This document shows, in pieces, positions 20,217-62,770 of a DNA stretch of 64,000 nt; positions within the stretch are counted from its first letter, which is position 1; each line of letters starts with the position of its first letter. The translations under genes and the position numbers were made by a program. The notes under the pieces are model-generated. The model was not told the DNA's origin. It ran no database searches and saw only the letters and a list, made by a program, of their open reading frames with translations. The stretch comes from a virus, in the IMG/VR virus record IMGVR_UViG_3300027996_000026, positions 2,116 to 66,115 of that record; one strand, given 5' to 3'.

Positions 20217-20690
20217 TTAAGTTTTCTTAAGCCATCATTCGATAGTCTCTAAAATAAAATCTCATATCTTTTTAATAATTAAACTCACTACATCATATTC
20301 AGAAACTACTTTTTTAGTTCTTATAGCATAAACATTTTGTGTAATACTATATGTCTCTGCCATTATAAAAATAGCTAATACTGATTTAATATAAAATGAT
20401 CAATCTATTTCTATTCATTTAAACATTAATGCTAATGATAGTATTAATATTAATGTACTAATTTTCTTAACAGCTCATTGCCATGCAGCATGACTAGTTA
20501 CTTTAGATCAATCAATTCTTAATTGTTTTCATATTCATACTATGAAATCTATAATCATCAACATTCAAAGGATACATATTTGTGTATCCTTGATATTTAA
20601 ATATTCAAATATTAAAATTGCTGTAGCATAACCACATAATTTTACTACTCATATTGATGATGTCGTAGCAACTGTTGTCGTAATCGGCAT
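20217..20690 (-). CDS. Holin (phage_holin_4_1-like)
   Basis: Transmembrane segments, IIDFIVGIGK..G..KKI, IMAETYSITQN. Confidence 0.75.
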
Positions 20691-20770: not shown

Positions 20771-21601
20771 TTAACTTCATGTATTTGTACTTGGAAAAGA
20801 TCTTCATGTTCACCATATAATTCTTAATGCTCAAGCTGCACCATTTCAATGAGTAGTATTGCTATCGTTACCAGCTCATCATCCTCAGTATGAACCTCCA
20901 TTAGAATATGCTGCATTACCATCTGCTCAATTACTTCATCAAGAACCTCATCCTCAACCATATCAATCTCAAGTAGATGCTGTACCACCAGATCCACTAG
21001 TTCATTCTCATAGTATTCAGACTCATCATCCTCATCATCAACAATCTGATATTCATCATCCACTTCAACCTCAAGCTGCTCATCATGTTCAGTTTCATCA
21101 AGTTGAACCTCTATTACTTCAAGCTCATCAATTTCAAGAATATCATCAAGCTCATCCTCAACCAGTACCATAATCTGAGTTCTTAGTACCATTACCACCA
21201 TTTCATCATCAATCTCAAGTATGACTTCATCATACTCACGCTATACTATCTGTAGATCAACCAGTACCTCAATATCAACATACTGTTGCTGTACTAATAA
21301 GGTAAGAATTTCAACCACTTCAAGCTGTTCAGTTATTAATTCTTGCTCATCCTCATCATACTACAATAGTATAATTACTTCAAGGTGTTACTGATATATT
21401 ATTTTTATATCAAAGTCATCCTCATCAACCACTAGCTGAACCAGTGCTTGTATAAGTACCTCCTCAACCTCAACCTACAGCAACTACACAAATACTAGTT
21501 ACTCAAACTGGACAAGTCCATATCGCATTTGATGTATATATTTGTTCTCAATAAGGTATATCTGTTTGTAGATTCTGACTATGAAATAATTGCCTATTCA
21601 T
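20771..21601 (-). CDS. Glycine-rich tail-associated protein (276 aa)
   Basis: WTCPVGVTSICVVAVGGGGGG..GALRIIWGTGRSFPSTNT. Dozens of TGA codons interleaved with GGT/GGA. Confidence 0.85.
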
Positions 21602-59870: not shown

Positions 59871-60176
59871 TTAGATTAAATCTAATACTTCTTGTGTTAC
59901 TTTATATACTGGATAATTTACAAATCATGATTGAGTATCTCTTACATGATCTGTTATAAATCCTTGTGCTTTTAATTGTGTAATCACTTCTCATATATAA
60001 CTCATATTGTTTATATCTATTACTACCTCATCACTAGCTATCCTTTCATCATATAGATTAACTGTGATAGTAGCTATAGGTTCTCCACTCTTTGTGTTCC
60101 AACTGAATGCAGTTCTTCAATTATTATATTGAAGCATTGTTACTGGTCCTTCATATGATCATAGTTTAAAATTCAT
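59871..60176 (-). CDS. DUF4313-like protein
   Basis: YNNGRTA..GEPIATITVNL..VIDINN..SGFVNYPVY. Confidence 0.7.
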
Positions 60177-60196: not shown

Positions 60197-60436
60197 TTAT
60201 ATTTTTCTAGATTTAATTTCCTCACATATTCATTCATAGTCTAGTATATCTAAGACTTGCTGTCAATATACTATATCTACATCATATGTATCTGGATCAT
60301 TTAATACTCAATAAGCTTGTTGGATTCATTCTTTAGCTCTTCTCTCTATATATTTCTTTATGTTTAATATATGAGAGTCAGTTAATTCTTTATATGGTAT
60401 TCGTGTTCCATCTATTGTTACCCATATATCTTGCAT
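60197..60436 (-). CDS. Hypothetical phage protein
   Basis: WVTIDGTRIPYKELTDSHILNI. Confidence 0.6.
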
Positions 60437-60440
60437 AGTA

Positions 60441-60935
60441 TTATATATTATAGAAATATAATTCTGTTTCTCTTCTTGATTTTAATCAAGGATACTCAGC
60501 GTTCCATCACCATACACTCATGATATATGTTATATCTTTATGAGAACATCTCTTTATGTATGATCTTAAATTCATCTGATATCATCATGTATTATACATA
60601 TATGAAACGAGAGCTATCTTTTGGTTATCATTGTAACAAGAGTTATCTACAACTTCATAGAGAGGATTTAAATGAGAAGCAAATTGTTTATCTGCTTCTT
60701 CTTTATTTATCTTATCTCATATTGTTTTACATGCTGTTCAATGTCACCAACTGTTTTGCTTGTTATCAAACTTACATGTATCTGTATATCATTCTCATGT
60801 GAATGATCCATATCAATTCTGAATAAAATCTATTGATCTTTCTTTCCAGTCACCAATTGATAATGGCTCTTCTAATAATAGAGGTGAGTCTTTAACCTCT
60901 ATTATTTTTTTGTTCTGAACTGTTCAAGGTTTTCT
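60441..60935 (-). CDS. GH24-like lysozyme domain lacking its own start codon
   Basis: GEGYTD..WGHGT..INKEEA..NQKIALVSYMYNTG..GLKSRRETE. Confidence 0.75.
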
Positions 60936-61312
60936 TTATCTAAACAATATTCTATATTGTATTCTAATCAATTAACCTTTCTATCCATTTGAGATCCATA
61001 ACATTCTCTGCTTAATATCTCATGTTCATATCTTACTTCCTCTTCTTTGATTAATTGTTTCCAATCATCTATATTATCTAGATATCATTCAGCATAATAA
61101 TTAGCTTCACTATATAAAAACTCTAACATTTCTATATCAGATTTTTCTAGTACTTTCTCTTCTAAACTATTAATAGTTTCTTGAGACTCTTGTTCTACTA
61201 AAGCTACCTTAGCTTTATATGTTCTGTTCATACTTCAAATAACAATTGTTAGTACTAATATAATTACTACTAATAATGCCATTGATATGTATCTAATCTT
61301 TATTGTATTCAT
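60902..61312 (-). CDS. Transmembrane plus coiled-coil protein, frameshift partner of the lysozyme
   Basis: ISMALLVVIILVLTIVIG followed by a charged helix. Ends ACA AAA AAA TAA. Confidence 0.75.
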
Positions 61313-61422
61313 ATGTATTATATAAATTAATAAATAAAATAATGTAGATAAAAATAAAAAAAACCTACATAAAAATATTTTATGTAGATTTATTTAGACA
61401 GAATAAATTTAAGTACAAGATA

Positions 61423-62422: not shown

Positions 62423-62770
62423 TTAATTTTCTATTTCTCATAAACATTTTTCACAAATGTAATCTGGTTCATCTCAGATTTTCTTTATGATCTTATCATA
62501 TAGATCATCTTCTGCATCCTCACATACTTGATGATAATGTCAGTCATGTTCTTTCTCTTCATTATAACAATTGCTACACATTCAGATTCAGCATACTTCA
62601 CATTTAAAATGTTGTGATACATATTTTCTTCATTCACAATATGGACAATCTCATTCTGTATCTATAACAATTTCTATGTCACAATTCGATTGCATTGTAT
62701 AATATGGGATTCAATCTAATATACATTGTATCTCATCTTTATCTAATTCTATTCTTATATCTCTACTCAT
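62423..62770 (-). CDS. Cys-rich Zn-finger protein
   Basis: CPYC, CEVC, CSNC, ICEKC. Confidence 0.65.

Follow-up and report, generated by a model that had tools for sequence, protein, structure and literature searches.

Programmed −1 ribosomal frameshifting is textbook knowledge for phage tail chaperones, bacterial dnaX and insertion sequences. Among the insertion sequences, IS1 and IS3/IS911 with their OrfA and OrfAB products use A_AAA_AAA or A_AAA_AAG with a stop codon adjoining the site and a structure downstream, as does the locus described here; in both, the catalytic domain has no start codon of its own and is, or in our case would be, made only as a trans-frame fusion next to a short product. 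The parts that are joined differ, however, being DNA-binding and transposase domains in the insertion sequences and a membrane stalk and a cell-wall hydrolase here, and an upstream Shine–Dalgarno stimulator is impossible in a genome without such motifs. The tau/gamma frameshift of Escherichia coli dnaX combines A_AAA_AAG, the same slippery sequence that we find in two relatives of our locus (L002 and L173), with a 3′ stem-loop; a stop near the site and two products with a common N terminus are shared as well, but the shifted product of dnaX is the shorter one, whereas here it would be the longer, enzyme-bearing one. The G/GT pair of phage lambda likewise relies on a phage −1 frameshift giving a short major and a long minor product, as we propose here, and it is similarly conserved over distant phages with varying heptamers, the lambda heptamer G_GGA_AAG itself recurring in one of our relatives (L172). 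G/GT is a structural assembly chaperone, though, and contains neither a membrane anchor nor an enzyme domain.

From the side of the enzyme, the nearest systems are the SAR endolysins (R21 of phage 21, PDB 3hde; P1 Lyz, PDB 1xjt), which are GH24 proteins with the Glu-8-Asp spacing that an N-terminal helix holds at the membrane and that need no holin for their export. In these enzymes, the helix has only weak hydrophobicity, can be released and is placed directly beside the domain. We considered and rejected this assignment for our locus, where the helix is rich in Leu, Val and Ile, is separated from the domain by about 110 residues of stalk and is encoded in another reading frame. SpmX of Asticcacaulis (PDB 6h9d) also has a GH24 domain, matching ours in fold, within a membrane-anchored protein, but it is a cellular morphogen with the GH24 domain at the N terminus and the transmembrane helices at the C terminus, and it is made without recoding. 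In the literature searched, we found no report of frameshifting in phage lysozyme or endolysin genes; the words lysozyme, endolysin and holin are absent from the sections considered of a 2016 review of recoding (PMC5009743), and a paper on the phages of code-25 hosts mentions neither frameshifts nor lysozymes. The recoding mechanism that we propose is a known one; the gene class, a wall hydrolase, is new to it.

The window that we analysed is a stretch of 64,000 nucleotides from the genome of a marine phage (source record of 66,648 nt, rated complete by CheckV), with essentially all of its long ORFs on the minus strand. A gene for a small membrane anchor (ORF1) ends there in ACA AAA AAA TAA, and the coding sequence of a lysozyme continues in the −1 frame (Table 1). 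We estimate at about 0.75 the probability that a programmed −1 ribosomal frameshift at this A_AAA_AAA heptamer yields both a 136-aa stalk and a 290-aa stalk–lysozyme fusion. An anchor–lysozyme fusion made by such a shift had been suggested in the initial annotation, and among the explanations that we compared, it is the one best supported by the junction, the diverged relatives and a sister clade in which the two parts are fused. The end of ORF1, the A7 run and the opening of the −1 frame all lie exactly where they had been placed.

Table 1. Features of the anchor–lysozyme locus and the holin gene, in window coordinates.
Feature	Position	Strand	Description and basis
ORF1	61312..60902 (including TAA)	minus	136 aa, membrane anchor and helical stalk; code 25 ORF listing
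Predicted transmembrane helix	61232..61288	minus	residues 9–27, L/V/I-rich; from the translation, within model helix 3–56
Slippery heptamer A_AAA_AAA	60905..60911	minus	A7 run, in X_XXY_YYZ phase with ORF1
Zero-frame TAA stop	60902..60904	minus	directly after the heptamer
Open −1 frame	60935 to 60441	minus	164 codons, overlapping the end of ORF1
Post-shift frame	60441..60905	minus	154 codons and TAA; 19-residue linker, then lysozyme domain
GH24 (T4-type) lysozyme domain	60444..60848	minus	PF00959, model, Foldseek
Catalytic residues	60750..60794	minus	Glu38, Asp47, Ser52 (post-shift numbering)
Glu38	60794-60792	minus	GAA
Asp47	60767-60765	minus	GAT
Ser52	60752-60750	minus	AGT
Hairpin	60874..60906	minus	perfect, 12 bp, 9-nt loop; inverted-repeat scan, RNAfold
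Holin	20220-20690		PF05105, E=1.3e-9; 40 kb from the lysozyme

The window is poor in G+C (26.7%), and its genes are broken apart under translation table 11 and mended when TGA is taken as a sense codon, as in code 25. All the signs in the sequence are that TGA is Gly, and not Trp, in this phage: the 11 TGA codons of the lysozyme frame stand in glycine-type motifs (GEG, GHG, NTGG and PGL), and at these positions an in-frame homologue (P0023) and other GH24 proteins carry Gly. A glycine-rich protein of 276 aa, encoded beside the holin (20771-21601, minus strand), has TGA for 65 of its codons, many of them within runs of Gly, which directly supports Gly over Trp. No tRNA genes were found in the window. 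None of the 57 minus-strand genes of at least 60 codons has GGAG, GAGG or AGGA at positions −20 to −4, where the background expectation is 5% per 17-mer, and the gene leaders are A/T-rich, so that genes here are evidently started without Shine–Dalgarno pairing. By the same token, an AGAGG found after the ORF1 stop is not a re-initiation signal.

The model of ORF1 (AlphaFold, pLDDT 92, pTM 0.50) consists of two long helices, residues 3–56 and 59–113, and a short C-terminal knob. The flank N-terminal to the hydrophobic helix is basic in ORF1 and in most family members, for which reason the protein is likely oriented with the N terminus inside and the C terminus outside, and the outside is where a muramidase and the conserved cysteine pairs would belong; C104 and C123 are the two cysteines invariant in the clade. 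A profile search with ORF1 retrieved at least 20 clusters of stand-alone proteins, 113–144 aa in length, and in 17 of the 20 full-length clusters, the C terminus is KK or KKY. Pfam and PHROG searches with ORF1 gave insignificant matches only, and a structural search of BFVD with the model gave no meaningful match (best E-value 2.3). We also asked whether ORF1 could be an i-spanin, the architecture being alike, and dismissed the idea: the match to Rz-like proteins in PHROG has an E-value of only 0.17, and no embedded or adjacent ORF of at least 40 aa in another frame of ORF1 is available for the o-spanin.

The conceptual fusion of 136 and 154 codons adds the lysozyme to this stalk. The post-shift frame matches Pfam PF00959 (Phage_lysozyme) with E=1.8e-9 and 38.5 bits against a cut-off of 22.3, and its model, built from an alignment of 22 sequences (pLDDT 90.2), has the GH24 fold, the initial annotation having read a GH24-like domain here: in Foldseek searches against PDB, it matches GH24 muramidases with probability 1.0 and TM scores of 0.59–0.68, including 6et6 with a TM score of 0.67, 7m5i, R21 (3hde), SpmX (6h9d), P22 and P1 Lyz. 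A sequence search of PDB gave SpmX (6h9d) as the sole match. The catalytic motif, Glu-8-Asp followed by Ser, is present, with the spacing from Asp to Ser one residue shorter than in T4 lysozyme; among the 22 aligned homologues, E38 and D47 are invariant and S52 is conserved in at least 90%. Judged by its residues and its modelled structure, the catalytic domain is intact and is predicted to be a muramidase. What the frame lacks is a place to start, just as had been noted: the first ATG, GTG or TTG is found at codon 102 after the slip site, 64 codons past the catalytic Glu at codon 38. PF00959 has no other match in the whole genome, and in each of the six assemblies, the gene callers passed over this stretch of about 465 nt, a sign that the lysis modules of code-25 phages are mis-annotated, as the genome’s only lysozyme is the one being missed.

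The exact ORF1 protein is found on contigs from five other samples (L003-L007), assembled by three pipelines (JGI, ENA/MEGAHIT and Logan), and the junction is identical, with A7, in all of them. Logan contigs from three more seawater runs (X3-X5) cross the A7 without an indel; one of them represents a variant strain, for which two SNPs are listed (60558 and 60642), each at a third position and synonymous in the lysozyme frame. The A6 or A8 that would have pointed to an error was thus looked for and did not appear; these comparisons are of contigs rather than raw reads and could hide rare variants, but a systematic homopolymer error at A7 is very unlikely. The significance of the heptamer itself needs a more careful assessment. 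In-phase A_AAA_AAR heptamers number 21 in the roughly 18,900 codons of the window, and the chance of one falling within the ORF1/lysozyme overlap of about 11 codons is around 1%. Long shifted frames run across many ORF ends in so compact a genome, as a count across the ORFs demonstrated, and the overlap alone is no evidence of frameshifting. Finally, A_AAA_AAA is borne in phase 16 times in other genes of the window, six of these in a single gene of 4,191 aa, and the heptamer alone can therefore not be very slippery in the host; with intrinsic slippage that cannot be high, the fusion is probably the minor product, and it is plausible that the short anchor is the major one.

Further evidence comes from the comparison of distant relatives. 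We read the junction DNA of 12 lineages, the window and 11 diverged relatives, whose ORF1 is 37–47% identical to that of the window in the three aligned relatives and 32–47% in database proteins (by BLAST or alignment). The hydrolase lies in the −1 frame in 12 of 12, and the zero-frame stop follows the slip site either immediately or after one codon. Wherever the contig reaches its end, the hydrolase frame is open for 154–179 codons. The slip site itself is A_AAA_AAA in seven lineages (the window, L008, L009, L168, L174, L175 and L176), A_AAA_AAG in two (L002 and L173) and G_GGA_AAG, with no A-run, in one (L172), making a canonical heptamer in 10 of the 12; the remaining two (L169 and L171) have N_GTA_AAG and retain only the tetranucleotide A_AAG. 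According to the recoding review, both A_AAA_AAG and Z_ZZN tetranucleotides are established sites of −1 shifts in bacteria (PMC5009743). The exchange of the A-run for G_GGA_AAG favours slippage of the ribosome and argues against both polymerase slippage and a sequencing artefact, and we infer from these patterns that the slip is ribosomal. In three lineages (L176, L174 and L008), the −1 frame has a stop 2–3 codons before the end of the heptamer, which confines the change of frame to the heptamer.

Protein-seeded scans of IMG/VR with ORF1, ORF2 and the ORF1 alignment gave no relatives, and neither did a DNA pattern for the conserved RKINGLEYN region. A pattern written for the junction, CAAAAAARTANTAGAGGT, was found in 38 viral and 120 metagenome stretches, all of which proved by tblastn to be chance matches and were discarded.

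In each of the 12 lineages, a hairpin is predicted just after the slip site, with z-scores from −1.1 to −6.6 against shuffled sequences; the hairpins are given as per-lineage folds, their stems being at differing offsets and not brought into register by MAFFT. The stems belong to at least five unrelated sequences (the GAGGU/ACCUC group, AGGUAGAG, GAGAAG, AUAGUUG and AGGCAGA). Perfect hairpins of at least 10 bp are rare, about 11 in the 64 kb, and one of these begins inside the heptamer; at such a density, a hairpin after the site in every lineage is not due to chance. In the window (RNAfold z=−3.2 to −3.75), the last two A of the heptamer take part in the two lowest pairs, both A-U, and the core, GAGGU paired with ACCUC, starts 5 nt downstream of the heptamer. 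The hairpin starts 0–6 nt after the heptamer in 11 of the 12 lineages, in most of them 0–3 nt, and 12 nt after it in L171. Structures stimulating frameshifts are usually placed 5–9 nt downstream of the slip site; the lowest pairs here are A-U, and only the G-C core, some 5 nt downstream, is at that distance. With the heptamer in the P and A sites, this core would meet the ribosome at the mRNA entrance.

Support for the two frames being parts of one protein comes from a sister clade. We searched exhaustively with the lysozyme frame in HMMER and then with a mixed profile, which retrieved single-ORF proteins of 250–303 aa (P0023 and P0084-P0098) and, in addition, P0041, P0063, P0010, P0014 and P0016. 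All of these consist of an N-terminal hydrophobic helix, a helical Cys...Cys region, a linker and PF00959, and when the two frames of four lineages are joined conceptually by the −1 shift, the products align with the single-ORF proteins from end to end. In hhalign comparisons, the ORF1 profile matches the N-terminal parts with a probability of 90% for P0023 and 87% for P0041, the match spanning the C..Q..R...C motif and the QFR(K) tail. The question of whether homologues are fused or keep the shift, raised in the initial annotation, is thus answered with both: the sister clade is fused in frame, and the ORF1 clade keeps the shift throughout and yielded no in-frame fusion. The split is therefore clade-wide and old.

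One may ask whether the lysozyme could instead be a separate gene, with ATA or ATT as a non-canonical start or with termination–reinitiation, and never fused. The window has an ATA that overlaps the TAA stop (ATAA), and in six of the relatives an ATG, GTG or TTG precedes the catalytic Glu and has been used by gene callers. These candidate starts are at non-homologous positions, however, and the other six of the 12 lineages have no canonical start ahead of the Glu at all; the ATA has become GTA in L002, L169 and L172 and GCA in L171, and the genome makes no use of the Shine–Dalgarno motifs. The linker ahead of each of these candidates shows conservation at the protein level and corresponds to the in-frame linker of P0023, and a soluble cytoplasmic lysozyme would need the holin, which is far away. 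In L171, an ATG just before the domain goes together with a degenerate heptamer, and there at least the lysozyme may be made alone; as an account of the locus, separate genes are improbable. Still less weight can be given to the thought that the lysozyme frame is a relic in decay, with the 136-aa membrane protein as the only functional product. The missing start codon and the failure of all gene callers to call the stretch would fit with decay, but a decaying frame would hardly stay open over its full length across the lineages with the catalytic Glu and Asp unchanged, give a confident model, limit the SNPs of a variant strain to synonymous ones and keep its TGA codons within conserved glycine motifs. 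We consider this explanation very unlikely.

The frame could also be restored before translation, by RNA polymerase slipping on the A7 and adding one A to the mRNA. Known bacterial cases of transcriptional slippage involve runs of about nine, and a homopolymer of some 8–9 or longer that is conserved in relatives, the mark of such slippage, was not found: the window has A7. The run is shared by seven of the 12 lineages and slippage may contribute there; according to the recoding review, Thermus dnaX relies on slippage at runs of A or T (PMC5009743). In the five other lineages, the runs have only 3 to 6 A (A6G in L002 and L173, GGGAAAG in L172 and GTAAAG in L169 and L171) and are too short for efficient slippage, and three of the five still form canonical ribosomal heptamers; polymerase slippage as the main mechanism thus appears improbable as well. 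The simplest objection, that the run is a mistake of sequencing or assembly and the true gene is a single in-frame ORF with A8, gains some credit from the error-proneness of such runs on some platforms. It would demand the same mistake in the window, in five other assemblies from various samples and assemblers and in three more runs, and relatives without any homopolymer keep the same −1 split; its probability is close to nil. Lastly, the A-run and the hairpin might form an intrinsic terminator for antisense transcription, with the position at the junction a coincidence, for the plus strand does read a 12-bp hairpin followed by T7. With all genes on the minus strand, there is no gene for it to serve, and our scan for terminators and promoters had no above-chance result around the junction, although its loop limit of 3–8 nt would miss the 9-nt loop. 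The antisense tract in L172, L169 and L171 is CUUUCCC or CUUUAC, not a U-run, and hairpin and split persist there all the same; a terminator as the explanation seems far-fetched.

In our preferred reading, that of a programmed −1 ribosomal frameshift, translation of the anchor gene would bring ribosomes to A_AAA_AAA with TAA directly behind it. Most of them would terminate and release the 136-aa protein, a type II membrane protein consisting of an N-terminal transmembrane helix and a helical stalk of about 100 residues. A fraction would slip back one base on the two Lys codons, probably aided by slow decoding of the stop and by the G-C core of the hairpin at the mRNA entrance, and continue through the 154-codon frame to make the 290-aa protein with the GH24 muramidase at the outer end of the stalk. 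The frameshift would then set the dose of a wall-cutting enzyme whose export needs no holin and which would be lethal if overproduced, and we think that dosing a self-exporting enzyme is most likely its purpose. The surplus stalk could assemble together with the fusion, by analogy with lambda G/GT or OrfA/OrfAB of the insertion sequences, and the enzyme could act in lysis or in an earlier remodelling of the wall. More speculatively, as proposed in the initial annotation, it might be directed at a cell on which a CPR host lives as a parasite. If correct, the reading suggests a way of dosing a membrane-tethered muramidase that exports itself, and it provides a simple and portable cassette of heptamer, stop and hairpin from a group of hosts whose translation has so far been beyond study in culture.

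Two of the relatives are of interest in their own right. L171 (positions 1254-1792 of a Logan contig from SRR25229943) is a close relative of L009 whose slip site is the degenerate A_GTA_AAG and whose hairpin is weak; the −1 frame remains open through its Lys/Pro-rich linker, with an ATG 11 codons before the catalytic Glu. The combination of a degenerate heptamer, a weak hairpin and an ATG near the domain suggests that L171 may have reverted to two separately translated genes. In L173 (positions 397-747 of a Logan contig from SRR26080966), a gene of the same anchor family ends in an A_AAA_AAG TAG junction, after which the −1 frame encodes a domain of 117 aa that is not GH24. Its match to the Pfam family GH73 Glucosaminidase (PF01832) is weak, E=0.012, and below the cut-off; it contains the motif E-T-S-G ... 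N-N-G-Q-G-I-K, resembling the signature of GH73. Tentatively, L173 could represent a swap to a GH73-like hydrolase domain behind the conserved frameshift junction, and if so, the junction is modular.

A more far-reaching interpretation would combine these elements for phages of hosts reading TGA as Gly (CPR-type): the frameshift would fix the ratio of stalk to stalk–hydrolase chains, and these would co-assemble by way of the helical stalk into a membrane-anchored, holin-independent wall-cutting device produced from the early gene region, with the junction acting as a modular socket for hydrolases, GH24 here and the GH73-like domain in L173. We regard this as doubtful; if true, it would make recoding a general control of dosage for the muralytic enzymes of phages.

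As to the surroundings, the lysozyme is indeed far from the holin, as the initial annotation had it, the PF05105 gene being 40 kb away. The neighbours of the anchor and lysozyme are small genes near the upstream end with respect to the direction of transcription, and the packing is tight, with the next gene beginning at 60436, right behind the end of the lysozyme frame. Between a gene for 163 aa and ORF1, the minus strand contains a 10-bp A/T-rich hairpin with a loop of 3 nt (61365-61387; CTACATAAAA / TTTTATGTAG), after which the coding strand reads G, T8, A, T5; this candidate for an intrinsic terminator lies immediately ahead of ORF1 and is not flagged by the consensus terminator scanner, which requires three G-C pairs. 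A TATAAT-like box stands a few bases before the ATG of ORF1. From a marine metatranscriptome library (run X9), a contig of 190 nt with 95–99% identity covers the 5′ part of ORF1 (61136-61326) and ends short of the A-run; it is a weak hint of ORF1 being expressed, as carry-over of DNA is possible. One of two small minus-strand neighbours (at 59871-60176 and 62423-62770) has a weak family match to DUF4313 (E=1.1e-6), and the other is a Cys-rich protein of 115 aa with a borderline match to PF10418, an Fe-S cluster binding motif (E=4.3e-5; 23.6 bits, with the cut-off at 23.9). In L174 (positions 1-2823 of a Logan contig from ERR12387316), the anchor/lysozyme pair is found between genes for a helicase, a DnaG-type primase zinc ribbon and an RNase T-like exonuclease, and it there belongs to a replication module rather than a lysis module.
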